IMG/VR virus record: IMGVR_UViG_2565956724_000008
Location: 1 to 47,980 of that record
DNA from: a virus
Taxonomy: Duplodnaviria; Heunggongvirae; Uroviricota; Caudoviricetes
Length of the DNA: 47,980 nt
Strand: one strand, 5' to 3'
Positions 10,756-31,734 of the stretch are shown piece after piece (positions within the stretch are counted from its first letter, which is position 1; each line of letters starts with the position of its first letter). The notes under the pieces are model-generated. The model was not told the DNA's origin. It did no database searches and saw nothing but the letters and a program-made list of their open reading frames with translations. Made by a program: the position numbers and the translations under genes.

Positions 10756-12527
10756 CAGTAAAACTCCAGAATGGTGGATGTCAGCGGGGTGCTGATACCG
10801 GCGGTGAGTGGCTCATTTAACAGAGCGTGCATGGTCGCCCAGGCGAGGTCGGCGTGGCTGGCTTCCTCGCTGCGGCTGGCCTCATAGGTGGCGCTGCGTC
10901 CGCTGCTGGTCATGGTCTTGCGGATAGCCATAAACGAGCTGGTGATGTCGGTGGCGCTGACGTCATATTCCAGACAGCCACGGCGAATAACGTCTTTTGC
11001 CTTGAGCACCATTGCGGTTTTCATTTCCGGCGTGTAGCGGATGTCGCGCGCGGCGGGATAGAACGAGCGCACGAGCTGGAACACGCCGACACCGAGGCCG
11101 GTGGCATCAATACCGATGTATTCGACGTTGTATTTTTCGGTGAGTTTGCGGATGGATTCCGCCTGGGTGGCAAAGTCCATGCCTTTCCACTGGTGACGCT
11201 CAAGTATTCTGAATTTGCCACCGGCCACCACCGGTGGTGCCAGCACCACGCATCCGGCGCTGTCGCCACGGTGTGACGGGTCGTAACCAATCCATACTGG
11301 GCGGGAGCCGAACGGATTCGCGGCAAACGGCGCATAGTCTTCCCATTCTTCCAGCGTGTCGACCATGCAGCGTTGCAGCTCCTCGAACGGGAACACCGAC
11401 GCCTTGTCGTCAACAAATTCACACATGAACAGGTTTTTAAAATCGTCGGCGCTGTTTTCACGTTTGAGCTGCTCAATGTCGAACAGCGTGCAGCCACCTT
11501 TCAGGGCGTCCTCAATGGTGACAATCTGCCGCCACTGGCCGTCCGCACAGAGAAGCCCACCGGCAAGGGCGTTATGACTGACGTCGATTTCCACGCGTTC
11601 GGCGGCGCTGGCGCGTCCCCGGTTGAACAGTTCACCTGACCAGAACGGGTAGGCGTCGTGCGCCAGCGTGGACGGGGTGGAGAAATAGGTCGAGCGCAGG
11701 TGACTCTGTGAGGCCATACCTGATGCCACCTTACGCAGTACCTGAAAATTCGGGATCCAGAAAATCTCGTCGACGTACAGGTCGCCGTTATGGCTCTGCG
11801 CGGTGTTGGAGTTGGTGCCGAGAAAAATCAGTTTTGCGCCGTTATTGCCCAGGACAATCGGGTCACCGGTCAGGTCAACGTCAACCAGACGGGCAAAGGC
11901 GATGATGTATTCGCGGAACACATACGCCTGCGTTTTACTGGCCGACAGAAAAATCTGGTTATGGCCGGTTTTCAGGGCGCGCAGCAGTGCCTCGCGGGAA
12001 AAATAAAACGTCGCGCCAATCTGGCGGGATTTCAGGATATCGCGGATGCGGTGCTCAAGCCCGGCGCGATACCAGTGCAACTGATAGTCGAAAGACTGCT
12101 CAAAGAAAATCTGCTCCAGCTTTTCGATGGCCTCGTCACTGAAAAAATTCTTTTTCGGTTTGCGACGCCCGCCTTTGTTGCGGTTAGCGACGTTCGGATT
12201 AAGGTCTGCCTCGTTGCCGGTCTGACTGTAACGGTTGACCCGTGCCAGTCGTTCAATCTGGCGTCCGAGCAGATCAATTTCCTTGAAGTCACCGCCGGTT
12301 TTCTGCGGTTTGATGATGAGCTGGGTCAGCCGCGCTTCCAGACTCATTTCGACACGGCTGATGGGGGCAACGCTGTCCCAGCCGTCGCGCTGTTTCCAGC
12401 TCTGCACCGTCGGGCGTTTCATCTGCAACATGGCGGCAATCTGCGGCACGGAAAACCCCTGCCAGTACAGCAGCGCCGCCTGACGACGCGGGTCGTGTAA
12501 AAGAGTGGTGTCTGTGGTGATGGTCAT
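10755..12527 (-). CDS. P: terminase large (ATPase) subunit P
   Basis: Start placed at in-frame ATG (MTITTDTT...), giving 590 aa as in P2 P; the ORF track extends it 10 codons upstream to 12557. Confidence 0.85.
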   Translation of the reverse strand: MTITTDTTLLHDPRRQAALLYWQGFSVPQIAAMLQMKRPTVQSWKQRDGWDSVAPISRVEMSLEARLTQLIIKPQKTGGDFKEIDLLGRQIERLARVNRYSQTGNEADLNPNVANRNKGGRRKPKKNFFSDEAIEKLEQIFFEQSFDYQLHWYRAGLEHRIRDILKSRQIGATFYFSREALLRALKTGHNQIFLSASKTQAYVFREYIIAFARLVDVDLTGDPIVLGNNGAKLIFLGTNSNTAQSHNGDLYVDEIFWIPNFQVLRKVASGMASQSHLRSTYFSTPSTLAHDAYPFWSGELFNRGRASAAERVEIDVSHNALAGGLLCADGQWRQIVTIEDALKGGCTLFDIEQLKRENSADDFKNLFMCEFVDDKASVFPFEELQRCMVDTLEEWEDYAPFAANPFGSRPVWIGYDPSHRGDSAGCVVLAPPVVAGGKFRILERHQWKGMDFATQAESIRKLTEKYNVEYIGIDATGLGVGVFQLVRSFYPAARDIRYTPEMKTAMVLKAKDVIRRGCLEYDVSATDITSSFMAIRKTMTSSGRSATYEASRSEEASHADLAWATMHALLNEPLTAGISTPLTSTILEFY

Positions 12528-12700
12528 GAATACCTCGCCGTGATGAATACACGGCAAGGCTACTGAGTCGCGCCCCGCGATTCGCTAAGGTGCTGTTGTG
12601 TCAGTGATAAGCCATCCGGGACTGATGGCGGAGGATGCGCATCGTCGGGAAACTGATGCCGACATGTGACTCCTCTAATCACTATTCAGGACTCCTGACA

Positions 12701-13555
12701 ATGGCAAAAAAAGTCTCAAAATTCTTTCGTATCGGCGTTGAGGGTGACACCTGTGACGGGCGTGTCATCAGTGCGCAGGATATTCAGGAAATGGCCGAAA
12801 CCTTTGACCCGCGTGTCTATGGTTGCCGCATTAACCTGGAACATCTGCGCGGCATCCTGCCTGACGGTATTTTTAAGCGTTATGGCGATGTGACCGAACT
12901 GAAGGCCGAAAAGATTGACGATGATTCGGCGCTGAAAGGCAAATGGGCGCTGTTTGCGAAAATCACCCCGACCGATGACCTTATCGCGATGAACAAGGCC
13001 GCGCAGAAGGTCTATACCTCAATGGAAATTCAGCCGAACTTTGCCAATACCGGCAAATGTTATCTGGTGGGTCTGGCCGTCACCGATGACCCGGCAAGCC
13101 TCGGCACGGAATACCTGGAATTCTGCCGCACGGCAAAACACAACCCCCTGAACCGCTTCAAATTAAGCCCTGAAAACCTGATTTCAGTGGCAACGCCCGT
13201 TGAGCTGGAATTTGAAGACCTGCCTGAAACCGTGTTCACCGCCCTGACCGAAAAGGTGAAGTCCATTTTTGGCCGCAAACAGGCCAGCGATGACGCCCGT
13301 CTGAATGACGTGCATGAAGCGGTGACCGCTGTTGCTGAACATGTGCAGGAAAAACTGAGCGCCACTGAGCAGCGCCTCGCTGAGATGGAAACCGCTTTTT
13401 CCGCACTTAAGCAGGATGTGACTGACAGGGCGGATGAAACCAGCCAGGCATTCACCCGCCTGAAAAACAGTCTCGACCACACCGAAAGTCTGACCCAGCA
13501 GCGCCGCAGCAAGGCCACCGGTGGTGGCGGTGACGCCCTGATGACGAACTGCTGA
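12701..13555 (+). CDS. O: capsid scaffolding protein O
   Basis: Start placed at MAKKVSKFF (ATG 12701), giving 284 aa as in P2 O; the ORF track starts at 12635. Confidence 0.85.
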   Translation: MAKKVSKFFRIGVEGDTCDGRVISAQDIQEMAETFDPRVYGCRINLEHLRGILPDGIFKRYGDVTELKAEKIDDDSALKGKWALFAKITPTDDLIAMNKAAQKVYTSMEIQPNFANTGKCYLVGLAVTDDPASLGTEYLEFCRTAKHNPLNRFKLSPENLISVATPVELEFEDLPETVFTALTEKVKSIFGRKQASDDARLNDVHEAVTAVAEHVQEKLSATEQRLAEMETAFSALKQDVTDRADETSQAFTRLKNSLDHTESLTQQRRSKATGGGGDALMTNC

Positions 13556-13613
13556 CCGGCGTCAGTCAGTCCGGGAAAACCTTCACGATTAACCCTTAAT
13601 TTCAGGAAAAACT

Positions 13614-14687
13614 ATGCGCCAGGAAACCCGCTTTAAATTTAATGCCTACCTGTCCCGTGTTGCCGAACTGAACGGCATCGACGCCGGTGATGTGTCGAAA
13701 AAATTCACCGTTGAACCGTCGGTCACCCAGACCCTGATGAACACCATGCAGGAGTCCTCTGACTTTCTGACCCGCATCAACATTGTGCCGGTCAGCGAAA
13801 TGAAAGGGGAAAAAATTGGCATCGGTGTCACCGGCTCCATCGCCAGCACCACCGACACCGCCGGTGGCACCGAGCGTCAGCCGAAGGACTTCTCGAAGCT
13901 GGCGTCAAACAAGTACGAATGCGACCAGATTAACTTCGATTTTTATATCCGCTACAAAACGCTGGACCTGTGGGCGCGTTATCAGGATTTCCAGCTCCGT
14001 GTCCGTAACGCCATTATCAAACGCCAGTCCCTTGATTTAATCATGGCCGGTTTTAACGGCGTGAGGCGTGCCGAAACCTCTGACCGCAGCAGCAATCCGA
14101 TGCTGCAGGATGTGGCGGTCGGCTGGCTGCAGAAATACCGCAATGAAGCCCCGGCGCGCGTGATGAGCAAGGTCACTGACGAGGAAGGGCACACCACCTC
14201 TGAGGTTATCCGCGTGGGTAAGGGCGGTGATTATGCCAGCCTTGACGCACTGGTGATGGATGCGACCAACAACCTGATTGAGCCGTGGTATCAGGAAGAC
14301 CCTGACCTTGTGGTGGTTGTGGGACGTCAGCTACTGGCGGACAAGTATTTTCCCATCGTCAACAAGGAGCAGGACAACAGCGAAATGCTGGCCGCTGACG
14401 TCATCATCAGCCAGAAACGCATCGGTAACCTGCCGGCGGTACGCGTCCCGTACTTTCCGGCGGATGCGATGCTCATCACAAAGCTGGAAAACCTGTCCAT
14501 CTACTACATGGATGACAGCCATCGCCGCGTGATTGAGGAAAACCCGAAACTCGACCGCGTGGAGAACTACGAGTCAATGAACATTGATTACGTGGTGGAA
14601 GACTACGCCGCCGGTTGTCTGGTGGAAAAAATTAAGGTCGGTGATTTCTCCACACTGGCTAAAGCGACCGCAGAGCCGGGAGCGTAA
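13614..14687 (+). CDS. N: major capsid protein N
   Basis: 357 aa as in P2 N; follows the scaffold gene. Confidence 0.9.
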   Translation: MRQETRFKFNAYLSRVAELNGIDAGDVSKKFTVEPSVTQTLMNTMQESSDFLTRINIVPVSEMKGEKIGIGVTGSIASTTDTAGGTERQPKDFSKLASNKYECDQINFDFYIRYKTLDLWARYQDFQLRVRNAIIKRQSLDLIMAGFNGVRRAETSDRSSNPMLQDVAVGWLQKYRNEAPARVMSKVTDEEGHTTSEVIRVGKGGDYASLDALVMDATNNLIEPWYQEDPDLVVVVGRQLLADKYFPIVNKEQDNSEMLAADVIISQKRIGNLPAVRVPYFPADAMLITKLENLSIYYMDDSHRRVIEENPKLDRVENYESMNIDYVVEDYAAGCLVEKIKVGDFSTLAKATAEPGA

Positions 14688-14690
14688 CCG

Positions 14691-15434
14691 ATGACGAGTC
14701 CCGCACAGCGCCACATGATGCGGGTCTCGGCAGCGATGACCGCGCAGCGGGAAGCCGCCCCGCTGCGACATGCAACTGTCTATGAGCAGATGCTGGTTAA
14801 GCTCGCCGCAGACCAGCGCACACTGAAAGCGATTTATTCAAAAGAGCTGAAGGCCGCGAAAAAACGCGAACTGCTGCCGTTCTGGTTGCCGTGGGTGAAC
14901 GGCGTGCTGGAGCAGGGCAAAGGTGCACAGGATGACATTCTGATGACGGTCATGCTGTGGCGTCTGGATACCGGCGATATTGCCGGTGCGCTGGAGATTG
15001 CCCGTTATGCCCTGAAGTACGGTCTGACCATGCCGGGTAAACACCGCCGTACCCCGCCGTACATGTTCACCGAGGAGGTAGCGCTCGCGGCCATGCGCGC
15101 TCACGCTGCCGGTGAGTCTGTGGATACCCGCCTGCTGACGGAGACCCTTGAACTGACCGCCACGGCTGACATGCCTGATGAAGTGCGCGCAAAGCTGCAC
15201 AAAATCACCGGTCTGTTTCTGCGTGACGGTGGTGATGCCGCCGGTGCGCTGGCTCACCTGCAACGTGCGACACAGCTCGACTGTCAGGCAGGCGTCAAAA
15301 AAGAGATTGAACGACTGGAGCGGGAGCTGAAACCGAAGCCGGAGCCGCAGCCCAAAGCGGCCACCCGCGCCCCGCGTAAGATCCGGAGCGTGACACCGGC
15401 AAAACGTGGACGCCCGAAAAAGAAAGCCAGTTAA
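14691..15434 (+). CDS. M: terminase small (endonuclease) subunit M
   Basis: 247 aa as in P2 M; basic C-terminal tail. Confidence 0.85.
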   Translation: MTSPAQRHMMRVSAAMTAQREAAPLRHATVYEQMLVKLAADQRTLKAIYSKELKAAKKRELLPFWLPWVNGVLEQGKGAQDDILMTVMLWRLDTGDIAGALEIARYALKYGLTMPGKHRRTPPYMFTEEVALAAMRAHAAGESVDTRLLTETLELTATADMPDEVRAKLHKITGLFLRDGGDAAGALAHLQRATQLDCQAGVKKEIERLERELKPKPEPQPKAATRAPRKIRSVTPAKRGRPKKKAS

Positions 15435-15533
15435 CAACCGAATGCGCCCCGCGCCAGGGCGGCACGCCGGTCAGTGAGGGTGAATCACCTGACACTGCAC
15501 CGGCGTCCACCGCCCGACTTTTCAGAGGTAGTC

Positions 15534-16043
15534 ATGATGACGCTGATTATTCCGCGAAAGGAGGCTCCCGTGTCCGGTGAGGGTACGGTGGTCATCCCGC
15601 AACCGGCAGGCGACGAGCCGGTGATTAAAAACACGTTCTTTTTTCCCGATATCGACCCGAAGCGCGTCCGGGAACGTATGCGCCTTGAGCAGACCGTCGC
15701 CCCCGCCCGTCTGCGTGAGGCCATCAAGTCAGGCATGGCGGAGACGAATGCGGAGCTGTACGAGTACCGCGAACAGAAAATTGCCGCCGGTTTTACGCGT
15801 CTGGCGGACGTCCCGGCGGACGACATCGACGGTGAAAGCATCAAAGTTTTTTACTACGAGCGCGCCGTGTGTGCGATGGCGACCGCGTCGCTTTATGAAC
15901 GTTATCGCGGTGTGGATGCCAGTGCAAAAGGCGACAAGAAGGCCGACAGCATTGACAGCACCATTGATGAGCTGTGGCGGGATATGCGCTGGGCAGTGGC
16001 GCGCATCCAGGGCAAGCCGCGCTGCATCGTGAGTCAAATCTGA
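15534..16043 (+). CDS. L: head completion/stabilisation protein L
   Basis: Start placed at MMTLIIPRKE (ATG 15534), giving 169 aa as in P2 L. Confidence 0.8.
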   Translation: MMTLIIPRKEAPVSGEGTVVIPQPAGDEPVIKNTFFFPDIDPKRVRERMRLEQTVAPARLREAIKSGMAETNAELYEYREQKIAAGFTRLADVPADDIDGESIKVFYYERAVCAMATASLYERYRGVDASAKGDKKADSIDSTIDELWRDMRWAVARIQGKPRCIVSQI

Positions 16044-16246
16044 TGAAGACCTTTGCGCTACAGGGCGACACGCTCGACGCCATTTGTGTCCGGTATTACG
16101 GGCGCACTGAGGGCGTGGTTGAGACCGTGCTCGCCGCAAATCCGGGACTGGCTGAACTGGGTGCGGTGTTGCCGCACGGCACCGCCGTCGAACTGCCCGA
16201 CGTTCAGACCGCGCCCGTGGCTGAAACTGTCAATCTGTGGGAGTAA
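16043..16246 (+). CDS. X: tail protein X
   Basis: Start placed at MKTFALQGD (ATG 16043, overlapping the L stop), giving 67 aa as in P2 X. Confidence 0.8.
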   Translation: MKTFALQGDTLDAICVRYYGRTEGVVETVLAANPGLAELGAVLPHGTAVELPDVQTAPVAETVNLWE

Positions 16247-16249
16247 CGC

Positions 16250-16531
16250 ATGACAGCAGAAGAAAAAAGCGTCCTGTCGCTTTTCATGATTGGGGTGCTG
16301 ATTGTTGTCGGCAAGGTGCTTGCCGGTGGTGAACCCATCACCCCGCGTCTGTTTATCGGGCGCATGTTGCTCGGTGGTTTTGTCTCGATGGTTGCCGGTG
16401 TTGTTCTGGTGCAGTTTCCTGACCTGTCACTGCCTGCGGTGTGCGGTATCGGCTCCATGCTGGGTATCGCCGGTTATCAGGTGATTGAGATTGCCATTCA
16501 GCGCCGTTTTAAGGGCAGGGGGAAACAGTAA
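16250..16531 (+). CDS. Y: holin Y
   Basis: 93 aa; hydrophobic transmembrane segments; first gene of the lysis cassette as in P2. Confidence 0.8.
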   Translation: MTAEEKSVLSLFMIGVLIVVGKVLAGGEPITPRLFIGRMLLGGFVSMVAGVVLVQFPDLSLPAVCGIGSMLGIAGYQVIEIAIQRRFKGRGKQ

Positions 16532-17028
16532 TGCCGGTAATTAACACGCATCAGAATATCGCGGCCTTTCTCGACATGCTGGCCGTGTCCGAAGGGACGG
16601 CGAATCATCCGCTGACGAAAAACCGGGGCTATGACGTGATAGTCACCGGACTGGACGGGAAGCCGGAAATTTTCACTGACTACAGTGACCACCCGTTCGC
16701 GCATGGCCGACCGGCGAAGGTGTTTAACCGTCGCGGTGAAAAATCCACGGCCTCCGGTCGCTATCAGCAGCTTTACCTGTTCTGGCCGCACTACCGCAAA
16801 CAGCTTGCCCTGCCGGATTTCAGTCCGTTGTCACAGGACAGGCTCGCCATTCAGTTGATCCGCGAACGCGGTGCACTGGATGACATCCGGGCGGGACGCA
16901 TTGAGCGCGCTATTTCACGCTGTCGCAATATCTGGGCGTCCCTGCCGGGTGCCGGTTACGGTCAGCGTGAGCATTCACTGGAAAAACTGGTCACCGTCTG
17001 GCGTACCGCCGGCGGTGTACCAGCTTAA
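16531..17028 (+). CDS. K: endolysin K
   Basis: 165 aa as in P2 K; follows the holin. Confidence 0.8.
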   Translation: MPVINTHQNIAAFLDMLAVSEGTANHPLTKNRGYDVIVTGLDGKPEIFTDYSDHPFAHGRPAKVFNRRGEKSTASGRYQQLYLFWPHYRKQLALPDFSPLSQDRLAIQLIRERGALDDIRAGRIERAISRCRNIWASLPGAGYGQREHSLEKLVTVWRTAGGVPA

Positions 17029-17042
17029 ACGGAGTAAACACC

Positions 17043-17468
17043 ATGAAGAAATTATCCCTTTCACTGATGCTGAATGTGTCGCTGGCGCTGATGCTGGCAC
17101 TGTCCCTGATTTACCCGCAGAGCGTGGCCGTCAATTTTGTCGCCGCCTGGGCGATTCTGGCGACGGTTATCTGTGTGGTTGCCGGTGGTGTCGGCGTGTA
17201 TGCCACTGAGTATGTGCTGGAACGCTACGGGCGGGAGCTGCCACCGGAATCGCTGGCCGTGAAGATTGTCACGTCGCTGTTTTTGCAGCCGGTGCCGTGG
17301 CGCAGGCGGGCGGCGGCTCTGGTAGTGATGGTGGCGACGTTTATCTCGCTGGTCGCTGCCGGGTGGATTTTTACCGCGCTGATTTATCTTGTGGCGTCGC
17401 TGTTTTTCCGGCTGATACGTAAAGCCTGTCGTCAGCGTCTTGAGGGGCGGGAACTATGTCAAAGCTGA
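17043..17468 (+). CDS. lysA: lysis-timing membrane protein LysA
   Basis: 141 aa, multiple hydrophobic helices; P2 lysA position. Confidence 0.75.
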   Translation: MKKLSLSLMLNVSLALMLALSLIYPQSVAVNFVAAWAILATVICVVAGGVGVYATEYVLERYGRELPPESLAVKIVTSLFLQPVPWRRRAAALVVMVATFISLVAAGWIFTALIYLVASLFFRLIRKACRQRLEGRELCQS

Positions 17469-17881
17469 TGATTGTGCTGGTCGTGTTGTTATCGCTGGCG
17501 GTGACCGGTCTGTTTCTGGTGAAACACAAAAATGCCAGCCTGCGCGCCTCGCTGGACAGGGCGAATAACGTCGCCAGTGAACAGCAGACGACCATCACCA
17601 TGCTGAAAAATCAGCTTCATGTTGCCATCACCAGGGCAGACAAAAACGAGCTGGCGCAGGTGGCACTGCGTCAGGAACTGGAGAACGCGGCGAAGCGTGA
17701 AGCACAGCGCGAGAAAACCATCACGAGGTTACTGAATGAAAACGAAGATTTTCGCCGCTGGTACGGCGCTGGCCTGCCTGATGCTGTGCGCCGGTTGCAC
17801 CAGCGCCCGGCCTGCACCGACGCCAGTGATTGTCGCCAACGCCTGCCCGAAAGTGAGCCTTTGCCCGATGCCGGGCAGTGA
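17456..17881 (+). CDS. lysB: i-spanin (Rz-like) LysB
   Basis: 141 aa; N-terminal transmembrane helix followed by a charged coiled-coil-like region. Confidence 0.75.
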   Translation: MSKLMIVLVVLLSLAVTGLFLVKHKNASLRASLDRANNVASEQQTTITMLKNQLHVAITRADKNELAQVALRQELENAAKREAQREKTITRLLNENEDFRRWYGAGLPDAVRRLHQRPACTDASDCRQRLPESEPLPDAGQ

Positions 17882-18026
17882 CCCGGAGACGAACGGCGAT
17901 TTAAGTGCCGATATCCGACAGCTTGAGAACGCGCTGGCACGCTGTGCCAGCCAGGTAAAAATGATTAAACACTGTCAGGACGAAAACGATGCTCAAACCC
18001 GACAGCCTGCGCAGGGCGCTGACTGA
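17736..18026 (+). CDS. lysC: o-spanin (Rz1-like lipoprotein) LysC, embedded in/overlapping lysB
   Basis: 96 aa; signal peptide with lipobox LCAGC, proline-rich; sits in the +1 frame over the lysB 3' end. Confidence 0.7.
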   Translation: MKTKIFAAGTALACLMLCAGCTSARPAPTPVIVANACPKVSLCPMPGSDPETNGDLSADIRQLENALARCASQVKMIKHCQDENDAQTRQPAQGAD

Positions 18027-18456
18027 TGCCGTCACGGTGCTGAAAACCAGTCCCGAGATGCTGCGGATATTCGTGGATAACGGGAGTATTGCCTCCACGC
18101 TGGCGACGTCGTTGTCATTCGAAAAGCGTTACACGCTCAATGTGATTGTGACCGACTTTACCGGTGATTTTGACCTGCTCATCGTGCCGGTGCTGGCGTG
18201 GCTGCGGGAAAATCAGCCCGACATCATGACCACCGATGAAGGCCAGAAAAAGGGCTTCACGTTTTATGCGGACATCAACAATGACAGCAGCTTTGATATC
18301 AGCATCAGCCTGATGCTGACCGAGCGCACGCTGGTCAGTGAGGTGGACGGCGCGCTGCATGTGAAGAATATCCCGGAACCTCCGCCGCCGGAGCCGGTCA
18401 CCCGCCCGGTGGAGCTGTATATCAATGGCGAACTGGTGAGCAAGTGGGATGAATGA
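17989..18456 (+). CDS. R: tail completion protein R
   Basis: 155 aa as in P2 R. Confidence 0.8.
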   Translation: MLKPDSLRRALTDAVTVLKTSPEMLRIFVDNGSIASTLATSLSFEKRYTLNVIVTDFTGDFDLLIVPVLAWLRENQPDIMTTDEGQKKGFTFYADINNDSSFDISISLMLTERTLVSEVDGALHVKNIPEPPPPEPVTRPVELYINGELVSKWDE

Positions 18457-18907
18457 GTTTAAGCGTTTTGAAGACCGGCTGACCGGACTGATTGAGTCGC
18501 TGTCACCGTCAGGGCGTCGGCGACTGGCGGTAGATATTGCGAAGAAGCTGCGCCAGCGCCAGCAGCAGCGAATTAAATTACAAAAAGCCCCGGATGGTAC
18601 GCCGTATGTACCGAGAAAAAACCAACCAGTACGAAATAAGAAAGGCCGGATAAAGCGGGAAATGTTTGTGAAATTACGCACTAACCGGTTTATGAAAGCA
18701 ACAGGTAGCGAGAGTGCGGCGGTGGTGGCGTTTGCCAGCGGAGTACAACGAATTGCGCGAGTACATCAATTAGGGCTTAGGGATAAGCCGGGGCGTAATA
18801 GTGCTGTGGTGGAATATCCTGTTCGTGAGTTATTTGGTTTTGACAAGGAATCTATACAATTGATAGAAAGGGAGTTATTAGTGATTCTATCGAAAGATGT
18901 TATATGA
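18449..18907 (+). CDS. S: tail completion protein S
   Basis: 152 aa (P2 S about 150 aa); precedes the cargo slot and V. Confidence 0.8.
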   Translation: MNEFKRFEDRLTGLIESLSPSGRRRLAVDIAKKLRQRQQQRIKLQKAPDGTPYVPRKNQPVRNKKGRIKREMFVKLRTNRFMKATGSESAAVVAFASGVQRIARVHQLGLRDKPGRNSAVVEYPVRELFGFDKESIQLIERELLVILSKDVI

Positions 18908-19659
18908 GACGGGTGTTTGTGGATAAAAAGTTTTCCATTTTGAGAAAAAGAGTAAAGCATTCTCAAAAGAAAGTTATGGATTGTATTATTGCTGACCATA
19001 ATGCTGATATATGTGTGTTATGCGGGAGTTCTGACGATATTACTCGTGAGCACATTATTCCTCAGTGGGCCTTTGAGTCAAATGCTGAAAAATCTTTAAT
19101 TAATAAAAAGAATAATCAGTCAACTCATTACATTAAAGCCACTGTACCAGCATGCAGAGTGTGCAATTCTGATTTGCTGGGAGTGTTTGAGTATAACCTG
19201 AAGAAATTTCTTACGGAAAAGAGAGGGGAGGAGTTAACAGATTATGAGTATGATTGCATCATATGGTGGTTGCAATACATGGGTTTTAAGTTGCAATTAA
19301 TGGATTTGCGGAACCGCTTTCTCAGGTATAAAGGTGGTGATTATATCCCGTTTCTTGCAAACTTCCCGGTTGCAATGTTTTGGGGGAATGTCGATACGAC
19401 GCCGGGGGATGTCTTCAGGATTATACGAAAATCGCGACGCAATCTGATGTCGAAATGGAAGGATAAAAAACATAATTCTTTGATGGTTTTTGAAACATCA
19501 AACAAGAGTTTTCATTTCTTTCATAAGGTTGATGAATTTATTTTTATTGAAATTCCTCAGGTTAAGAAGGCGTTTTTCTTCTTTTTTAATAAAGAATTTG
19601 ACAGCCATGATTTAGCTCATGAGGAGTGTATGAAGATTATAGAGAAGTGCTACAACTAA
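18904..19659 (+). CDS. HNH-motif protein, AT-rich cargo gene in the S-V slot (P2 orf30 position)
   Basis: 251 aa; CVLCG...REHIIPQW...CRVCN fits a CxxC/H/N/CxxC HNH nuclease motif; visibly AT-rich against GC-rich neighbours; start overlaps the S stop. Confidence 0.6.
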   Translation: MRRVFVDKKFSILRKRVKHSQKKVMDCIIADHNADICVLCGSSDDITREHIIPQWAFESNAEKSLINKKNNQSTHYIKATVPACRVCNSDLLGVFEYNLKKFLTEKRGEELTDYEYDCIIWWLQYMGFKLQLMDLRNRFLRYKGGDYIPFLANFPVAMFWGNVDTTPGDVFRIIRKSRRNLMSKWKDKKHNSLMVFETSNKSFHFFHKVDEFIFIEIPQVKKAFFFFFNKEFDSHDLAHEECMKIIEKCYN

Positions 19660-19736
19660 TATTTGTTATGTTGTGTCACAGCTGACAGAACCCTCCATGA
19701 TTGCTGCTGGTATCGTCCAGCGGCATCCTTCCCGTT

Positions 19737-20372
19737 ATGAACACTCTCGCAAATATTCAGGAACTCGCGCGCGCACTGCGCAATATGATTCGCACCGGCG
19801 TTATCGTCGAAACCGACCTTAACGCCGGTCGCTGCCGTGTGCAGACCGGCGGCATGTGCACCGACTGGCTTCAGTGGTTGACCCATCGTGCCGGGCGTTC
19901 GCGTACATGGTGGGCACCTTCCGTGGGGGAACAGGTGCTGATTCTGGCCGTGGGCGGTGAACTTGACACGGCGTTTGTTCTGCCGGGGATTTATTCCGGT
20001 GATAACCCCGCGCCGTCTGCGTCGGCGGATGCCCTGTATATCCGTTTCCCTGACGGGGCGGTGATTGAGTATGAACCCGAAACCAGTGCACTCATGGTAA
20101 GCGGAATTAAAACGGCCAGCGTGACGGCTTCTGATTCTGTTACTGCCACGGTGCCGGTGGTCATGGTGAAAGCATCAACCCGCATCACCATGGACGCACC
20201 GGAGGTGGTCTGCACCAACAGGCTGATTACCGACACGCTGGAAGTGCAGAAGGGCGGGACGATGCGCGGCAACATTGAACACACCGGCGGTGAACTCTCA
20301 TCAAACGGTAAGGTACTGCATACCCATAAACACCCCGGCGACAGCGGCGGCACAACCGGGAGTCCTCTATGA
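19737..20372 (+). CDS. V: baseplate spike/assembly protein V
   Basis: Start placed at MNTLANIQEL (ATG 19737), giving 211 aa as in P2 V. Confidence 0.85.
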   Translation: MNTLANIQELARALRNMIRTGVIVETDLNAGRCRVQTGGMCTDWLQWLTHRAGRSRTWWAPSVGEQVLILAVGGELDTAFVLPGIYSGDNPAPSASADALYIRFPDGAVIEYEPETSALMVSGIKTASVTASDSVTATVPVVMVKASTRITMDAPEVVCTNRLITDTLEVQKGGTMRGNIEHTGGELSSNGKVLHTHKHPGDSGGTTGSPL

Positions 20373-20716
20373 CAGCGCGTTATCTCGGAATGAATCGCAG
20401 TGATGGCCTGACTGTCACTGACCTTGAGCATATCAGCCAGAGTATCGGCGATATCCTGCGCACACCGGTCGGCTCACGGGTGATGCGTCGTGATTACGGC
20501 TCGTTGCTGGCGTCAATGATTGACCAGCCGCAGACCCCGGCGCTTGAGTTGCAGATTAAGGTCGCCTGTTACATGGCCGTGCTGAAATGGGAACCCCGCG
20601 TCACCCTGTCATCCGTCACCACGGCGCGCAGTTTTGACGGGCGAATGACGGTCACGTTAACCGGCCAGCACAACGACACCGGCCAGCCACTTTCGTTAAC
20701 CATCCCTGTGAGTTGA
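20369..20716 (+). CDS. W: baseplate protein W (gp25-like)
   Basis: 115 aa as in P2 W. Confidence 0.85.
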   Translation: MTARYLGMNRSDGLTVTDLEHISQSIGDILRTPVGSRVMRRDYGSLLASMIDQPQTPALELQIKVACYMAVLKWEPRVTLSSVTTARSFDGRMTVTLTGQHNDTGQPLSLTIPVS

Positions 20717-20720
20717 AACC

Positions 20721-21629
20721 ATGCCGATTATCGACCTGAACCAGCTACCCGCACCGGATGTGGTCGAGGAGCTGGACTTTGAAACCATTCTTGCCGAACG
20801 CAAGGCGACACTGATTTCCCTTTACCCGGAAGACCAGCAGGAGGCGGTCGCCCGTACCCTGACGCTGGAATCTGAGCCTCTCGTCAAACTGCTGGAGGAA
20901 AATGCTTATCGTGAGCTTATCTGGCGTCAGCGTGTGAATGAGGCTGCACGGGCGGTGATGCTGGCCTGTGCCGCCGGTAATGACCTTGATGTGATTGGTG
21001 CCAATTACAACACCACACGCCTGATTATCACCCCGGCAGATGATTCGACCCTCCCGCCGACACCGGCCGTGATGGAATCTGACACCGATTATCGTCTGCG
21101 TATTCAGCAGGCGTTTGAAGGTTTAAGCGTCGCCGGGTCGGTGGGGGCCTATCAGTATCATGGTCGAAGTGCCGACGGGCGTGTCGCAGATATCTCTGTC
21201 ACCAGTCCTTCTCCGGCCTGCGTCACCATCTCTGTGCTGTCACGTGAAAATAACGGTGTGGCATCCGAAGACCTGCTGGCGGTGGTGCGCAACGCCCTTA
21301 ATGGTGAGGACGTCAGACCGGTGGCCGACCGTGTGACCGTGCAGTCTGCCGTCATCGTTGAATACCAGATAAATGCCACGCTTTACCTTTACCCTGGCCC
21401 CGAAAGCGAACCCATTCGCGCTGCCGCCGTGAAAAAACTGGAAGCGTATATCACGGCACAGCACCGGCTGGGGCGCGACATCCGACTGTCTGCCATTTAT
21501 GCCGCTTTGCATGTGGAAGGCGTGCAGCGTGTCGAACTGGCTGCACCGCTGGCCGACATCGTGCTCAACAATACGCAGGCGTCTTTCTGTACCGAATACA
21601 GCGTCGTGACCGGAGGCTCGGATGAGTGA
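20721..21629 (+). CDS. J: baseplate protein J
   Basis: 302 aa as in P2 J. Confidence 0.85.
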   Translation: MPIIDLNQLPAPDVVEELDFETILAERKATLISLYPEDQQEAVARTLTLESEPLVKLLEENAYRELIWRQRVNEAARAVMLACAAGNDLDVIGANYNTTRLIITPADDSTLPPTPAVMESDTDYRLRIQQAFEGLSVAGSVGAYQYHGRSADGRVADISVTSPSPACVTISVLSRENNGVASEDLLAVVRNALNGEDVRPVADRVTVQSAVIVEYQINATLYLYPGPESEPIRAAAVKKLEAYITAQHRLGRDIRLSAIYAALHVEGVQRVELAAPLADIVLNNTQASFCTEYSVVTGGSDE

Positions 21630-22233
21630 TTCGCGACTGCTGCCGACCGGCTCATCACCGCTTGAAGTCGCTGCCGCAAAAGCCTGTGCGGAAATTGAAA
21701 AAACGCCGGTCAGTATTCGTGAGCTGTGGAACCCGGACACCTGCCCGGCAAATCTGCTGCCGTGGCTGGCGTGGTCATTTTCGGTTGACCGCTGGGATGA
21801 TAAGTGGCCGGAAGCGACAAAACGCGCTGTTATCCGCGATGCGTATTTCATTCACTGCCATAAGGGCACTATAGGCGCAATCCGGCGTGTGGTGGAGCCG
21901 CTCGGCTATCTGATTGAGGTGAGGGAGTGGTGGCAGCTCAACGAGGAGCCGGGGACGTTCCGCATCGTTGTTGGCGTGCTTGAGCAGGGTATTACCGAGG
22001 AAATGTATCAGGAGCTGGAGCGCCTCGTTGCTGATGCAAAACCGGCAAGCCGCCATCTGACGGGACTGGCTATCAGTTTAAGTACAACCGGCAACATTTT
22101 TGCCGGTGCGGGATGCTATCACGGTGACGCCCTGACGGTTTATCCCTACACCCCGGAGGCCATTATTGTCGGAGGGGATTATTTCCCGGCCTCGGCCATT
22201 CATTTAATTGATAACCTGAGAGTAAACGCATGA
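21622..22233 (+). CDS. I: baseplate/tail protein I
   Basis: 203 aa in the P2 I position immediately upstream of the tail fibre gene (P2 I is shorter). Confidence 0.75.
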   Translation: MSDSRLLPTGSSPLEVAAAKACAEIEKTPVSIRELWNPDTCPANLLPWLAWSFSVDRWDDKWPEATKRAVIRDAYFIHCHKGTIGAIRRVVEPLGYLIEVREWWQLNEEPGTFRIVVGVLEQGITEEMYQELERLVADAKPASRHLTGLAISLSTTGNIFAGAGCYHGDALTVYPYTPEAIIVGGDYFPASAIHLIDNLRVNA

Positions 22234-23537
22234 CAGTGAAATACTACGCCATTCTGACTAATCAGGGCGCAGCACGGCTGGCTAACGCGACGATGCTCGG
22301 CAGTAAGCTGAATCTGACGCAAATGGCCGTTGGTGATGCGAATGGTGTCTTGCCGACACCAGACCCGGCACAGACAAAACTGATTAACCAGAAACGCATC
22401 GCGCCGCTGAATCTTCTGAGTGTTGACCCGAACAACCAGAGCCAGATTATTGCGGAGCAAATCATCCCTGAGAACGAGGGCGGATTCTGGATCCGTGAGA
22501 TTGGGCTTTATGATGATGAAGGCGTACTCATTGCGGTGGCGAACTGCCCGGAAACGTACAAACCGCAGTTGCAGGAAGGCAGTGGTCGTACCCAGACTAT
22601 CCGCATGATTCTGGTTGTCACGAATACCGAAGCTATTACGCTGAAAATCGACCCGTCGGTGGTACTGGCGACCCGTAAATACGTGGATGATGAAGTCCTG
22701 GAATTAAGGCTGTATGTGGATGACCAGATGAGAAACCACATTGCCGCACAGGATCCTCATACCCAGTATGCACAGAAATATAATCCGACATTTACCGGAG
22801 AACCAAAAGCGCCGACGCCTGCCGCAGGGAATAACACCACGCGGATTGCGACCACTGAGTTTGTTCAGGCCGCTATTACCGCTCTGATTAACGGTGCGCC
22901 AGCCACGCTGGACACACTGAAAGAAATTGCCGCAGCCATTAACAATGACCCGAAATTCAGTACCACCATTAACAATGCGCTGTCAGGTAAGCAGCCACTG
23001 GATGAGACGCTGACTCATTTGAGTGGAAAGGATGTTGCCGGTCTTCTCGCATACCTTGGTTTGGGAGAAGGCTCTGCATTACCTGTTGGTGTGCCTGTTC
23101 CATGGCCTTCAGCCACACCGCCAACAGGCTGGCTGAAATGCAACGGTGCGGCTTTTTCTGCTGAAGAATACCCGGAACTGGCAAAGGCTTATCCGACAAA
23201 TAAATTGCCTGATTTACGTGGTGAGTTTATTCGTGGCTGGGATGACGGGCGCGGTATTGATGCAGGACGTGTTTTATTGAGCATTCAGACAGGGATGCTG
23301 GAAAAACACCGCCATATTGTTGTTGCCAATGATGGTTACGACACAAAAGATGAATGGGAACTGGCTACGATTTTCAAAAAGACATACACACAAGGACGGG
23401 GACTTGATGCCGCAAATACAGGAGGGAGTCTGATCCCATCACCGACACTTCATTCACGAGGGAGTATCGGTAATACTGGCGGGAGTGAAACCCGTCCACG
23501 AAATATTGCATTTAACTATATCGTGAGGGCTGCATAA
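22230..23537 (+). CDS. H: tail fibre protein H (constant N-terminal part plus variable tip Sv)
   Basis: 435 aa; N-terminal region resembles P2 H (MAVGD..., ELGLYDD...LIAVAN); C-terminal ~155 aa has a Mu/P1 S-like tail-collar pattern (PVPWPSATPPTGWLKCNGAAFS...). The constant/variable boundary falls at the hix-like site. Confidence 0.85.
   Translation: MTVKYYAILTNQGAARLANATMLGSKLNLTQMAVGDANGVLPTPDPAQTKLINQKRIAPLNLLSVDPNNQSQIIAEQIIPENEGGFWIREIGLYDDEGVLIAVANCPETYKPQLQEGSGRTQTIRMILVVTNTEAITLKIDPSVVLATRKYVDDEVLELRLYVDDQMRNHIAAQDPHTQYAQKYNPTFTGEPKAPTPAAGNNTTRIATTEFVQAAITALINGAPATLDTLKEIAAAINNDPKFSTTINNALSGKQPLDETLTHLSGKDVAGLLAYLGLGEGSALPVGVPVPWPSATPPTGWLKCNGAAFSAEEYPELAKAYPTNKLPDLRGEFIRGWDDGRGIDAGRVLLSIQTGMLEKHRHIVVANDGYDTKDEWELATIFKKTYTQGRGLDAANTGGSLIPSPTLHSRGSIGNTGGSETRPRNIAFNYIVRAA
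23044..23069. other. hix/gix-like 26-bp invertase crossover site (left)
   Basis: TTCTCGCATACC-TT-GGTTTGGGAGAA: two 12-bp imperfectly palindromic half-sites around a 2-bp core, close to Hin hixL (TTCTTGAAAACCAAGGTTTTTGATAA, recalled); arm symmetry ends 1 bp after it. Confidence 0.6.
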
Positions 23538-24139
23538 TGGATAACGCCGTATTAAATAGCGAGCTTATTGCCACGAAGGCGGGGAATATTACCGTCTATA
23601 ACTATGATGGTAAAACTCGGGAATATATTTCTACTTCAAATGAATATCTTGCCATTGGTGTCGGTATCCCTGCATATTCCTGTCTGGATGAACCTGGTAT
23701 ACATAAGGCGGGTTATGCTATCTGCCGTTCGATGGATTTAAACTCATGGGAATATGTGCCAGACCATCGCGGTGAAATCGTCTATAACACCGAAACGGGA
23801 GACGCCAAAGAAATCACAGCTCCGGGTGATTATCCTGAAAATACAACCACTATCGCCCCGTTAACGCCATTCGATAAATGGGATGGTAAGAAATGGGTGA
23901 CCGATACTGAGGCACAGCATAGCGCCGCAGTAGACGCGGCAGAAGCACTGCGTCAGTCACTGATTGATACTGCAATGGCTTCCATCAGTCTGATTCAACT
24001 GAAATTGCAGGCCGGGCGGAAGCTGACGCAGGCAGAAACCACCCGACTTAACGCTGTGCTGGATTACATTGACGCGGTGACGGCAACAGATACGAGCACC
24101 GCGCCGGATGTCATCTGGCCTGAACTGCCGGAGGCGTAG
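23537..24139 (+). CDS. G: tail fibre assembly protein (P2 G / Mu U-like)
   Basis: 200 aa immediately downstream of H; C-terminus ...APDVIWPELPEA is typical of tail-fibre-assembly chaperones. Confidence 0.75.
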   Translation: MDNAVLNSELIATKAGNITVYNYDGKTREYISTSNEYLAIGVGIPAYSCLDEPGIHKAGYAICRSMDLNSWEYVPDHRGEIVYNTETGDAKEITAPGDYPENTTTIAPLTPFDKWDGKKWVTDTEAQHSAAVDAAEALRQSLIDTAMASISLIQLKLQAGRKLTQAETTRLNAVLDYIDAVTATDTSTAPDVIWPELPEA

Positions 24140-24551
24140 GCCATTCAATATCTGGCGCACCGGAAGTATCGACCAGTTCCAGTGCGTCCAGGTAATCCAG
24201 CCACAAATTATATTGCGCCAGTTCGTCACCTTTCAGACGACCAATAGCCGCTTTACCAGGCCATTGTTTACTGTTCATATAATCGTTGGCCTGATTAATC
24301 AATTGCTGCTTCTCCAGTTCGGCTGCAGCAATTTGTTCCTCATGTGTTGGTGGTGGAATTTCGGACCATGCAGGAAAACCATTTTCTCCAGCGATACGGA
24401 TTTTTCCTTTCGGCGGTAATCCGGAAAACTCAATATACACTTGCTCATCAACTTCAACAGCATCATCTGGCCATGAGTCAGCTTGAGTGTAATCCTCTTT
24501 CATCTCCAGCGGATAGAAAGAGTTTGTAGTCGCGGAATATATGTAATTCAT
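24111..24551 (-). CDS. alternative tail fibre assembly protein (Mu U'-like)
   Basis: 146 aa, convergent with G and overlapping its 3' end by 29 bp; C-terminus ...APDIEWPTPPA resembles that of G; GGAG ribosome-binding site upstream. Confidence 0.7.
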   Translation of the reverse strand: MNYIYSATTNSFYPLEMKEDYTQADSWPDDAVEVDEQVYIEFSGLPPKGKIRIAGENGFPAWSEIPPPTHEEQIAAAELEKQQLINQANDYMNSKQWPGKAAIGRLKGDELAQYNLWLDYLDALELVDTSGAPDIEWPTPPAVQAR

Positions 24552-24572
24552 TTTTCACTCCATATAGCTAAA

Positions 24573-25751
24573 TTAACAGCCTAACGCTAAAAATGAAGCG
24601 CCGAGGCCAGGATTACTGGCTCTGGATATAAATTTAACCGGGTCGGGACTAAAACCTGCACAGGCAATATAACCAACAGCCCCGCTATCTGGTGTATAGT
24701 CTTGTGAGACCAAAACACGCAGACATCTGTTTGGAAATGCAATTGGGAAATGGGTTACTACATCCTGTGCAATGCCTGGAGCGCCGATTGAGCCCCACTG
24801 AAGAATAAAACCTGATGGTAATTTTTGATATCCAGTACCTGAAACAGAAAGCGTGAAGCTACCCATATCAGGTATCTGATTCGCCCCTGTCCCTACATTC
24901 CTTTTAGCCGCTTCTCCCAAACCAAGGTATGCGAGAAGACCGGCAACATCCTTTCCACTCAAATGAGTCAGCGTCTCATCCAGTGGCTGCTTACCTGACA
25001 GCGCATTGTTAATGGTGGTACTGAATTTCGGGTCATTGTTAATGGCTGCGGCAATTTCTTTCAGTGTGTCCAGCGTGGCTGGCGCACCGTTAATCAGAGC
25101 GGTAATAGCGGCCTGAACAAACTCAGTGGTCGCAATCCGCGTGGTGTTATTCCCTGCGGCAGGCGTCGGCGCTTTTGGTTCTCCGGTAAATGTCGGATTA
25201 TATTTCTGTGCATACTGGGTATGAGGATCCTGTGCGGCAATGTGGTTTCTCATCTGGTCATCCACATACAGCCTTAATTCCAGGACTTCATCATCCACGT
25301 ATTTACGGGTCGCCAGTACCACCGACGGGTCGATTTTCAGCGTAATAGCTTCGGTATTCGTGACAACCAGAATCATGCGGATAGTCTGGGTACGACCACT
25401 GCCTTCCTGCAACTGCGGTTTGTACGTTTCCGGGCAGTTCGCCACCGCAATGAGTACGCCTTCATCATCATAAAGCCCAATCTCACGGATCCAGAATCCG
25501 CCCTCGTTCTCAGGGATGATTTGCTCCGCAATAATCTGGCTCTGGTTGTTCGGGTCAACACTCAGAAGATTCAGCGGCGCGATGCGTTTCTGGTTAATCA
25601 GTTTTGTCTGTGCCGGGTCTGGTGTCGGCAAGACACCATTCGCATCACCAACGGCCATTTGCGTCAGATTCAGCTTACTGCCGAGCATCGTCGCGTTAGC
25701 CAGCCGTGCTGCGCCCTGATTAGTCAGAATGGCGTAGTATTTCACTGTCAT
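24573..25751 (-). CDS. H: tail fibre protein H with alternative variable tip (Sv')
   Basis: 392 aa; N-terminal ~280 aa identical to the left-arm H, C-terminal ~112 aa unrelated to Sv; the switch occurs exactly at the right hix-like site. Confidence 0.8.
24912..24937. other. hix/gix-like 26-bp invertase crossover site (right, inverted)
   Basis: Reverse complement of the site at 23044..23069. Confidence 0.6.
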
Positions 25752-26359
25752 GCGTTTACTCTCAGGTTATCAATTAAATGAATGGCCGAGGCCGGGAAAT
25801 AATCCCCTCCGACAATAATGGCCTCCGGGGTGTAGGGATAAACCGTCAGGGCGTCACCGTGATAGCATCCCGCACCGGCAAAAATGTTGCCGGTTGTACT
25901 TAAACTGATAGCCAGTCCCGTCAGATGGCGGCTTGCCGGTTTTGCATCAGCAACGAGGCGCTCCAGCTCCTGATACATTTCCTCGGTAATACCCTGCTCA
26001 AGCACGCCAACAACGATGCGGAACGTCCCCGGCTCCTCGTTGAGCTGCCACCACTCCCTCACCTCAATCAGATAGCCGAGCGGCTCCACCACACGCCGGA
26101 TTGCGCCTATAGTGCCCTTATGGCAGTGAATGAAATACGCATCGCGGATAACAGCGCGTTTTGTCGCTTCCGGCCACTTATCATCCCAGCGGTCAACCGA
26201 AAATGACCACGCCAGCCACGGCAGCAGATTTGCCGGGCAGGTGTCCGGGTTCCACAGCTCACGAATACTGACCGGCGTTTTTTCAATTTCCGCACAGGCT
26301 TTTGCGGCAGCGACTTCAAGCGGTGATGAGCCGGTCGGCAGCAGTCGCGAATCACTCAT
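25748..26359 (-). CDS. I: baseplate/tail protein I (mirror copy)
   Basis: Mirror of 21622..22233; identical translation. Confidence 0.75.
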
Positions 26360-27260
26360 CCGAGCCTCCGGTCACGACGCTGTATTCGGTACAGAAAGAC
26401 GCCTGCGTATTGTTGAGCACGATGTCGGCCAGCGGTGCAGCCAGTTCGACACGCTGCACGCCTTCCACATGCAAAGCGGCATAAATGGCAGACAGTCGGA
26501 TGTCGCGCCCCAGCCGGTGCTGTGCCGTGATATACGCTTCCAGTTTTTTCACGGCGGCAGCGCGAATGGGTTCGCTTTCGGGGCCAGGGTAAAGGTAAAG
26601 CGTGGCATTTATCTGGTATTCAACGATGACGGCAGACTGCACGGTCACACGGTCGGCCACCGGTCTGACGTCCTCACCATTAAGGGCGTTGCGCACCACC
26701 GCCAGCAGGTCTTCGGATGCCACACCGTTATTTTCACGTGACAGCACAGAGATGGTGACGCAGGCCGGAGAAGGACTGGTGACAGAGATATCTGCGACAC
26801 GCCCGTCGGCACTTCGACCATGATACTGATAGGCCCCCACCGACCCGGCGACGCTTAAACCTTCAAACGCCTGCTGAATACGCAGACGATAATCGGTGTC
26901 AGATTCCATCACGGCCGGTGTCGGCGGGAGGGTCGAATCATCTGCCGGGGTGATAATCAGGCGTGTGGTGTTGTAATTGGCACCAATCACATCAAGGTCA
27001 TTACCGGCGGCACAGGCCAGCATCACCGCCCGTGCAGCCTCATTCACACGCTGACGCCAGATAAGCTCACGATAAGCATTTTCCTCCAGCAGTTTGACGA
27101 GAGGCTCAGATTCCAGCGTCAGGGTACGGGCGACCGCCTCCTGCTGGTCTTCCGGGTAAAGGGAAATCAGTGTCGCCTTGCGTTCGGCAAGAATGGTTTC
27201 AAAGTCCAGCTCCTCGACCACATCCGGTGCGGGTAGCTGGTTCAGGTCGATAATCGGCAT
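26352..27260 (-). CDS. J: baseplate protein J (mirror copy)
   Basis: Mirror of 20721..21629; identical translation. Confidence 0.85.
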   Translation of the reverse strand: MPIIDLNQLPAPDVVEELDFETILAERKATLISLYPEDQQEAVARTLTLESEPLVKLLEENAYRELIWRQRVNEAARAVMLACAAGNDLDVIGANYNTTRLIITPADDSTLPPTPAVMESDTDYRLRIQQAFEGLSVAGSVGAYQYHGRSADGRVADISVTSPSPACVTISVLSRENNGVASEDLLAVVRNALNGEDVRPVADRVTVQSAVIVEYQINATLYLYPGPESEPIRAAAVKKLEAYITAQHRLGRDIRLSAIYAALHVEGVQRVELAAPLADIVLNNTQASFCTEYSVVTGGSDE

Positions 27261-27264
27261 GGTT

Positions 27265-28244: not shown

Positions 28245-28321
28245 AACGGGAAGGATGCCGCTGGACGATACCAGCAGCAATCATGGAGGGTTCTGTCAGC
28301 TGTGACACAACATAACAAATA

Positions 28322-30938: not shown

Positions 30939-30952
30939 GGTGTTTACTCCGT

Positions 30953-31731: not shown

Positions 31732-31734
31732 GCG

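Follow-up and report, generated by a model that had tools for sequence, protein, structure and literature searches.

What does an HNH-type gene do when it lies among the tail genes of a P2-like phage? This question is raised by an AT-rich open reading frame (ORF) in IMG/VR virus record IMGVR_UViG_2565956724_000008, of which we analyzed the whole stretch of 47,980 nucleotides (hereafter, the window). The ORF is located on the + strand at 18904..19659 (251 codons plus a stop codon in the window's ORF list), between the tail completion gene S and the baseplate spike gene V. The original prediction, made from the letters alone, regarded it as cargo with an HNH nuclease motif that might serve in superinfection exclusion or abortive infection. 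The reading that we favor, with confidence that does not go beyond even, is that the product is a self-contained conflict nuclease, acting in exclusion or defense, which would cut competitor or foreign DNA.

A conserved zinc-finger HNH-type signature

In the ORF translation, the motif residues are found in ICVLCG (C37 and C40), TREHIIPQW (E49 and H50) and ACRVCN (C84, C87 and N88). Conservation was assessed in a close-family alignment of 25 full-length relatives (27–71% identity) and in a superfamily alignment of 60 members with identities down to 16%. Residues C37, C40, E49, H50, P53, W55, N70, C84, C87, N88, L92, W122 and K129 were invariant in the 25 relatives, a set that includes the complete zinc-finger HNH/HNN signature. 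C37, C40, E49, H50, P53, W55, C84, C87, N88 and W122 were still invariant in the 60 superfamily members; both CxxC pairs were kept in every sequence of the two alignments, and N70 was conserved at a level of at least 90% in each. As the same residues persist in relatives as distant as 27% and 16% identity, the Cys/His pattern is not a chance arrangement, indicating that the protein bears a genuine conserved zinc-finger HNH-type signature, as originally proposed from the CxxC...EH...N...CxxCN spacing.

Profile searches pointed to the Pfam family HNH_5 (PF14279; cut-off, 27.5 bits). The window protein scored 16.2 bits, below the cut-off and over profile positions 1–21 only, and gave a weak sub-threshold match to Endonuclease_1, another His-Me family. 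HNH_5 was matched by 23 of the 25 relatives (best E = 3.1e-5), in every case under the threshold. Since all HNH_5 scores fall under the gathering threshold, the protein appears to be a divergent relative of this family and no curated member. Scans of NCBIfam, PADLOC and Pfam detected no family besides these two sub-threshold ones. Nothing relevant was found when PDB was searched directly with the protein and with the close-family profile. With the superfamily profile, the sole match within E = 10 was 4H9D, an HNH endonuclease of Geobacter metallireducens; at E = 0.16 this match is supportive, not significant alone, with both motif halves collinear and with E49, H50 and N88 aligned to DH ... 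CxxCNN of 4H9D.

By comparison with the Cas9-type and Gme-type HNH sites, roles were assigned to the conserved residues. Cys37, Cys40, Cys84 and Cys87 would hold a structural zinc, Glu49 and Asn88 would hold the catalytic divalent metal, His50 would be the general base that activates the attacking water, and Asn70 would be the structural asparagine that braces the hairpin. A metal-dependent nuclease activity is predicted for the protein on this basis.

Predicted structure of the protein

An AlphaFold model calculated with a deeper alignment (model 2) reached a predicted local distance difference test score (pLDDT) of 92.5 and a predicted template modeling score (pTM) of 0.91. Within the nuclease motif (residues 37–105; 19012..19218, + strand), the model contained a strand at 46–50 ending in His50, strands at 64–67, 72–75 and 80–84, and a helix at 85–105 with C87/N88 at its start, and this element order fits a ββα-metal finger. 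The finger is preceded by a basic helical hairpin (residues 8–30; 18925..18993, + strand; model helices 8–19 and 21–30), in which L13 and R14 were invariant in the close family. It is followed by a non-catalytic scaffold (residues 113–251; 19240..19656, + strand) with long helices at 113–136 and 167–182, a four-stranded β-sheet at 193–227 and a terminal helix at 235–250; W122 and K129, both invariant in the 25 relatives, lie on helix 113–136. The product has a predicted size of approximately 29–30 kDa and is basic (pI 9.1), with its positive charge in the N-terminal hairpin (net charge of residues 1–36, +6) and the middle helices.

The approximately 150 residues after the finger had been described as featureless. 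This description stood insofar as they gave no Pfam, NCBIfam, PADLOC or PDB match, and no relative of the scaffold or of the whole-chain model was found in PDB. It did not stand with regard to conservation. When the family was compared with 48 sister proteins of 300–360 amino acids (aa) by hhalign, the homology (probability 99.7%, E = 1e-26) spanned residues 23–225, and one conserved core therefore appears to take in the finger, the helices and the first part of the β-sheet. The scaffold is predicted to be a recognition or regulatory part. The profile and structure search recommended with the original prediction had a divided outcome: the sub-threshold HNH_5 matches, the weak 4H9D match and the ββα element order were in line with an HNH fold, and the whole chain had no relative in PDB.

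The gene is dispensable cargo of the S-V slot

The GC content was 0.35–0.40 along the ORF (about 36%) compared with 0.55–0.61 in both flanks. The 5' neighbor (18449..18907, + strand) matched Pfam Phage_tail_S (E = 2.5e-29), assigned to tail completion and virion morphogenesis; the ORF preceding S corresponds to P2 GpR in Pfam, and the 3' neighbor matched Phage_base_V and Phage_spike. This location places the ORF, as judged from its neighbors, in a P2-like prophage, and the region was 99.9% identical to prophages of Escherichia coli S56 and ECE313. The low GC content and the S-V position, a gap that holds orf30 in P2, were thus as originally described.

The ATG at 18904 shares ATGA with the stop codon of S. 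However, the homologues from other genera and the annotation of phage R18C begin at MDKKF, 11–19 nt past the S stop codon, and for this reason the true start is probably the GTG at 18919, which would give a coding sequence of 18919..19659 (+ strand) and a product of 246 aa. As first given, the ORF matched phrog_10503 over its full length (E = 1.6e-181), and it also corresponds to ORF16 of R18C (98.4% identical, same S-V position); both are of unknown function. The R18C authors presented ORF16 as a moron of 741 bp that replaces P2 orf30, and found neither a motif nor a function for it; the HNH signature and the wider family are not mentioned in that paper (PMC6823313). The S-V slot is one of the three classic moron regions of P2 (PMC6823313, PMC3091744).

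We surveyed 5,426 complete E. coli genomes, in which the state of the slot was judged from the match span. The P2-type region was matched in approximately 1,675 genomes and the gene was present in 77 of them, all copies being chromosomal, full-length and 96–100% identical. The most common state was an empty slot (match span of approximately 3,831 bp, compared with 4,601 bp with the HNH gene). The discrete states were empty, P2 orf30-type, the HNH gene, a 414-aa ATPase, a 347-aa hypothetical protein and a Klebsiella 216-aa gene, so that the slot takes at least four unrelated cargos. Because the gene occurs in so few of the genomes that have the region and the slot is mostly empty, the HNH gene is dispensable accessory cargo and no conserved structural gene of P2-like phages, which bears out the cargo status proposed for it.

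According to the P2 record, the S-V gap of P2 is a boundary between operons, with the O-operon terminator, orf30 on the opposite strand, a site for activator binding and the beginning of the V operon. The P2 orf30 (261 aa, 786 bp; L008 1174..1959, – strand), the 347-aa hypothetical gene (L140 2005..3048, – strand) and the Klebsiella 216-aa gene (L005 6926..7576, – strand) matched no Pfam or PADLOC model. The 414-aa ATPase of E. coli AH50 (L139 2000..3244, – strand) matched the PADLOC candidate PDC-S59 (E = 2.8e-31). All of these other fillers lie opposite to the late operons; only the HNH gene is co-oriented with S. The suggested comparison with orf30 held for the slot, which is the same, and failed for the proteins: kinship with P2 Orf30 was rejected (BLASTP E = 0.47, opposite strand). 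The size of orf30 is quoted as 261 bp in the R18C paper, compared with 786 bp and 261 aa in the P2 record.

Probable coupling to the late O operon

Comparison of 49 IMG/VR loci (identities as low as 45%) showed the gene co-oriented with S in 46, where it started 0–38 nt after S and ended approximately 81 nt before V. A scan of the junction between S and the gene detected no promoter-like or terminator-like site and nothing convincing upstream of the ORF. On the other side, alignment similarity to empty-slot phages resumed exactly at a conserved dyad, GTTGTGTCACAGCTGACA (19670..19687, + strand), upstream of V. The P2 record has an activator-binding site for pV annotated just upstream of V, and the dyad corresponds by position to this activator-site region of the late promoter P_V, which suggests its function. 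V itself (19737..20372, + strand) starts with the ATG at 19737, which gives the P2 gpV start MNTLANIQ, according to Pfam and to alignment with P2 and phage HQ103.

Folding of the interval 19660–19740 gave –27.4 kcal/mol (z = –4.3). The GC-rich 9-bp hairpin in it (19702..19725, + strand) was also predicted in the empty-slot phage HQ103 (L009 ~1134..1157), with one compensatory pair change (T-A vs C-G) in the alignment, and could mark where the O operon ends or act as a leader element of V. Because the gene is co-oriented with S, follows it by 0–38 nt with no signals in between and is followed by a hairpin, we infer that the late O operon ends with this gene, placed immediately after S.

Evolutionary history of the exchanged block

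The low-GC tract starts within the 3' part of S, and from about codon 27 the S gene of the window is a divergent, lower-GC allele of the 186/PSP3 type (S'). Since the tract begins inside S, the exchanged block appears to comprise the 3' part of S together with the ORF. The C-terminal half of S was 34% identical to S of P2, compared with 50–67% identity to S of gene carriers from other genera. In E. coli, the S' allele was found in 79 genomes and the gene in 77. The allele class (186/PSP3/Klebsiella type) is common in phages without the HNH gene, and because it is ordinary there, the E. coli block looks as if homologous recombination had brought it in from another lineage of peduoviruses. The gene was found on varied P2-type backbones (V, 92–99% identical).

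The ratio of nonsynonymous to synonymous substitution rates (dN/dS) was 0.18 in comparison with R18C, a value from one close pair. Between genera, dS was saturated and dN was 0.14–0.39. The GC content of the gene was 33–37% throughout, in backbones of 57–61%, and 50 of 52 phage copies were intact. These data indicate that the gene is functional and under purifying selection. As dS between genera is saturated, the association between the S allele and the gene also appears to be old. The idea of a recent insertion was rejected, given the saturated synonymous sites between genera and a block that is AT-rich throughout.

Relatives outside the S-V slot

A word-indexed search detected 44 relatives, mostly from Enterobacterales. 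In an exhaustive profile search of 1.84 billion representatives, 35 clusters (defined at 50% identity) were found at E < 1e-30 and 868 at E < 1e-3, and the sister family brings the superfamily to approximately 870. The public names of the sampled relatives, including the sister family, were all "hypothetical". A scan of one genome per species gave 130 relatives, and the genomic context was taken from the best 80. Only 3 of these 80 loci were in the P2 S-V slot (67–70% identity). The other 77 (30–42% identity) had no S or V nearby and were mostly chromosomal, as solitary genes of variable or defense islands in many phyla; they came from Vibrionaceae, Shewanella, Halomonas, Acinetobacter, Desulfobulbaceae, many Bacteroidota, Gracilibacteria and others.

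A search of the 80 loci for a conserved gene that might encode a partner, immunity protein or antitoxin found none. As no neighbor family recurred in more than five of them, the family appears to be a stand-alone, horizontally mobile module. The immediate neighbors were mixed, with many housekeeping genes, relaxase and integrase genes, and a minority of defense genes; the defense-type neighbors were Mrr/type IV restriction, Schlafen-AlbA, NA-iREase1, PD-Lambda-3, bSEFIR, GajB, LmuA and BrxH. In one compact defense island (L145 1039..20723), a distant family member is flanked by a 2,797-aa Rhs/Ntox37 toxin on one side and, on the other, by AbiEii, a type I restriction-modification system in which an AAA_13 gene is embedded, and a SMODS cyclase of the cyclic oligonucleotide-based antiphage signaling (CBASS) type. 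Another member adjoins HicAB.

Phage-borne relatives also occurred outside the slot. In a P2-like viral contig of 42% GC (L135 5971..6735 and 10794..11822), a 37%-identical member lies near the portal gene Q, approximately 4 kb from it in the cargo region on the cos-proximal side and not between S and V, at the position where P2 has the old/tin hotspot. The downstream neighbor of this member (162 aa) gave weak matches to homing-endonuclease and endonuclease PHROGs. In a non-P2 phage, a relative sits between an anti-repressor gene and the terminase gene, upstream of the terminase and portal genes. Contigs attributed to a Sporobacter termitidis metagenome-assembled genome (L011) and to Chryseobacterium sp. 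(L012) contained P2-like segments of enterobacterial type, with S, V and J 63–82% identical to those of the window, which suggests that these contigs are contaminated or mis-binned.

Possible roles of the product

The favored reading, a conflict nuclease, was chosen because an intact, conserved and partner-less HNH protein moves between variable islands and phage cargo slots. The context that we counted for it comprises the defense-gene neighbors, the L145 island, the HicAB neighbor, the member at the old/tin position and the PDC-S59 ATPase as an alternative filler of the slot, and this context makes a role in superinfection exclusion or abortive infection plausible. In such a mechanism, the zinc-stabilized ββα-metal finger would be the catalytic heart of an intact, selectively maintained, basic protein. 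The scaffold would most likely supply substrate recognition or self-restraint, given that family members come with neither a partner nor an immunity or antitoxin gene. The product would be made whenever the late promoters fire. This wiring suggests two uses: the gene would be expressed in the lytic cycle of the phage itself, or possibly in a lysogen whose late promoters meet the activator of an incoming P2-like phage or P4 satellite. Nuclease activity, substrate, timing of expression and biological role are all predictions from sequence and context.

The reading of a conflict nuclease has several weak points. The late-operon position does not fit simple constitutive expression in a lysogen. 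The ββα assignment rests on the element order of a model for which PDB contains no structural relative. At least 15 of 140 immediate neighbors matched PADLOC models, which is a raw count without a background control. Furthermore, the comparison with defense catalogues suggested at the outset turned out negative: no significant model was found in PADLOC-DB v2, where the best values, E = 0.033 (PDC-M01B) and E = 0.036 (Cas8c), are at noise level, and none in NCBIfam. A sister-family member gave a weak match to PDC-M01B (E = 9.7e-6). PDC-M01 is a two-gene candidate system, whereas the HNH family has no partner, and the match of the window protein is short and not significant.

A more specific version, which we consider a long shot, holds that the protein is the founding member of a widespread family of single-protein nucleases and acts as a late-promoter tripwire in P2-like phages. 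Placed at the end of the Ogr/delta-activated O operon, the gene would be silent in the lysogen; a superinfecting P2-like phage or P4 satellite would trans-activate the late promoters, and the nuclease would then destroy the intruder or the cell.

The main rival explanations are a helper nuclease of the lytic cycle and a homing endonuclease. The former would be made with the tail proteins and would degrade host or unpackaged DNA for nucleotide salvage or host shut-down, or process phage DNA, to the benefit of the phage itself and not to exclude competitors. The gene apparently closes the late O operon, and no promoter of its own was detected (46 viral contigs), the relative in the non-P2 phage lies upstream of terminase and portal genes, and the virulent phage R18C keeps the gene intact (PMC6823313). 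We nevertheless regard this explanation as unlikely. Only about 5% of the E. coli P2-like prophages carry the gene and most slots are empty, so that growth does not require it; the majority of the family is chromosomal and outside recognizable phage late operons, a setting in which a function in the phage life cycle would have no sense; and in P2-like phages the gene is not adjacent to the terminase. Nor is P2 known to degrade host DNA. A terminase-associated HNH protein of the HK97 gp74 type, which is small, encoded beside the terminase and required for packaging, was also rejected as a candidate: the gene is approximately 6 kb from the terminase genes P and M, encodes 246–251 aa and is absent from approximately 95% of related prophages. 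An HNH-like finger without catalytic activity, in a protein that serves as a DNA-binding regulator or as a structural adaptor, would agree with the sub-threshold Pfam scores, the lack of a structural relative in PDB and the basic, largely helical character of the protein. Inactivated HNH domains, however, usually lose their catalytic residues, and E49, H50, N70 and N88 are invariant or nearly so over very deep divergence; because of this invariance, we judge an inert finger to be highly improbable.

A free-standing HNH homing endonuclease, acting by intronless homing, would be made late in co-infection and would cut P2-like genomes that lack the gene at or near the S-V junction, after which donor-templated repair would carry the gene and the flanking S sequence across. 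Besides the catalytic motif, this explanation draws on the presence/absence polymorphism at one exact intergenic site amid conserved genes, the co-orientation and apparent co-transcription with the phage late operon, the occurrence on varied backbones, and the perfect linkage in E. coli to the divergent S 3' allele (79 vs 77 genomes). The T4 Mob homing enzymes share His-Me group 1 with HNH_5 (PMC5714182). The linked S', however, is an ordinary allele found in many phages without the gene and not a private cleavage-resistant one, and the S 3' allele was dropped as evidence for a co-conversion or immunity tract since its class is common without the gene. The family is also not confined to phage, intron or intein settings, 77 of 80 species-level relatives being solitary, chromosomal and away from S/V, some of them in defense islands; a member also occurs at a different position in another P2-like phage, and the slot itself receives at least four unrelated cargos. 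No NUMOD, IENR, AP2 or HTH module was found with Pfam at E up to 1, and the strong purifying selection with 96% intact copies is unlike typical decaying homing genes. Taken together, these points make a homing enzyme quite improbable in our view.

Comparison with known systems

The signature CxxC ... (D/E)H ... N ... CxxC-N is the same as in HNH_5 and His-Me group 1 proteins such as 4H9D and the HNH domain of Cas9 (PMC5714182). The window protein differs from them in that a longer stretch separates the catalytic His from the second CxxC, and adds the N-terminal hairpin and a helical/β scaffold of approximately 150 aa that has no relative in PDB. With the P2 morons Orf30, Old, Tin and Fun(Z), the gene shares the character of non-essential, AT-rich, exchanged cargo in the classic variable regions (PMC6823313, PMC3091744). 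In contrast to orf30, which is an opposite-strand gene behind a terminator, the HNH gene is co-oriented and apparently joined to the late operon, and whereas experiments have established how Old, Tin and Fun act in exclusion, the role of the HNH gene is predicted from context.

McrA of prophage e14, a type IV restriction enzyme, offers a working analogy only: it too is an HNH nuclease made by a prophage as one polypeptide, has a noncatalytic part for recognition and acts without a partner gene; it belongs to His-Me group 1 too (PMC5714182). The domain order is reversed, with the HNH motif N-terminal in the window protein, no similarity beyond the HNH motif was detected, although no search was aimed at it, and a dependence on DNA modification would be conjecture. 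T4 MobA-E and I-HmuI resemble the gene in the HNH motif, a site between conserved phage genes, apparent co-transcription and variable presence, and differ from it with respect to the NUMOD/IENR/AP2 modules, the mostly chromosomal, solitary relatives and the strong purifying selection described above.

In the literature on HNH_5-based defense and on the S-V slot, only the R18C description and general statements on the orf30 region were found, and the major studies of P2 hotspots did not cover the slot or the HNH gene. What appears to be new to the literature searched is the assignment to HNH proteins, the superfamily with its distribution, and the unusual operon coupling; the gene itself is known as "hypothetical". 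It is well established that P2-like prophages yield new anti-phage systems, and surveys have centered on the old/tin and Z/fun hotspots. If the product is a conflict nuclease, it would be a compact system of one gene (approximately 250 aa), in which a new regulatory scaffold surrounds an HNH site of the Cas9-like kind and which is spread from Enterobacteria to Bacteroidota and bacteria of the candidate phyla radiation (CPR). The wiring into a late structural operon, if true, would be a timing unlike that of the usual constitutively expressed prophage morons. A homing enzyme, should the product be one instead, would be a rarity among temperate P2-like phages.

Other features of the window

The window is a perfect palindrome with two arms, 1..23070 and 24911..47980, one matching the other exactly as its reverse complement; every arm gene is present twice, and the list of ORFs shows the same symmetry. 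The palindrome looks like an assembly foldback and not like biology. Because the arms are exact reverse complements, the second copy of the ORF (28322..29077, – strand) is a mirror duplicate that appears to be an artifact, not an independent gene.

The unique center of the palindrome (23071..24910; 1,840 bp) encodes an H C-terminus and G (Caudo_TAP) on the + strand, and a second Caudo_TAP and an alternative H C-terminus on the – strand. At the ends of the arms, a 26-bp site (23044..23069; mirror, 24912..24937) with the sequence TTCTCGCATACC-TT-GGTTTGGGAGAA resembles the Cin/Gin/Hin crossover sites and falls at the boundary between the constant and variable parts of the tail-fiber gene H. This layout suggests an invertible tail-fiber segment; an invertase gene was not found in the window.

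An 864-aa ORF (6633..9227, – strand; mirror, 38754..41348, + strand) lies between the replication gene A and the portal gene Q, the interval that is the classic old/tin defense hotspot of P2. It contains a SIR2_2 domain and matched the PADLOC models Aga_SIR2-PNTD (E = 5e-59) and PDC-S65, and because of this domain and these matches it is a candidate for SIR2-type defense.

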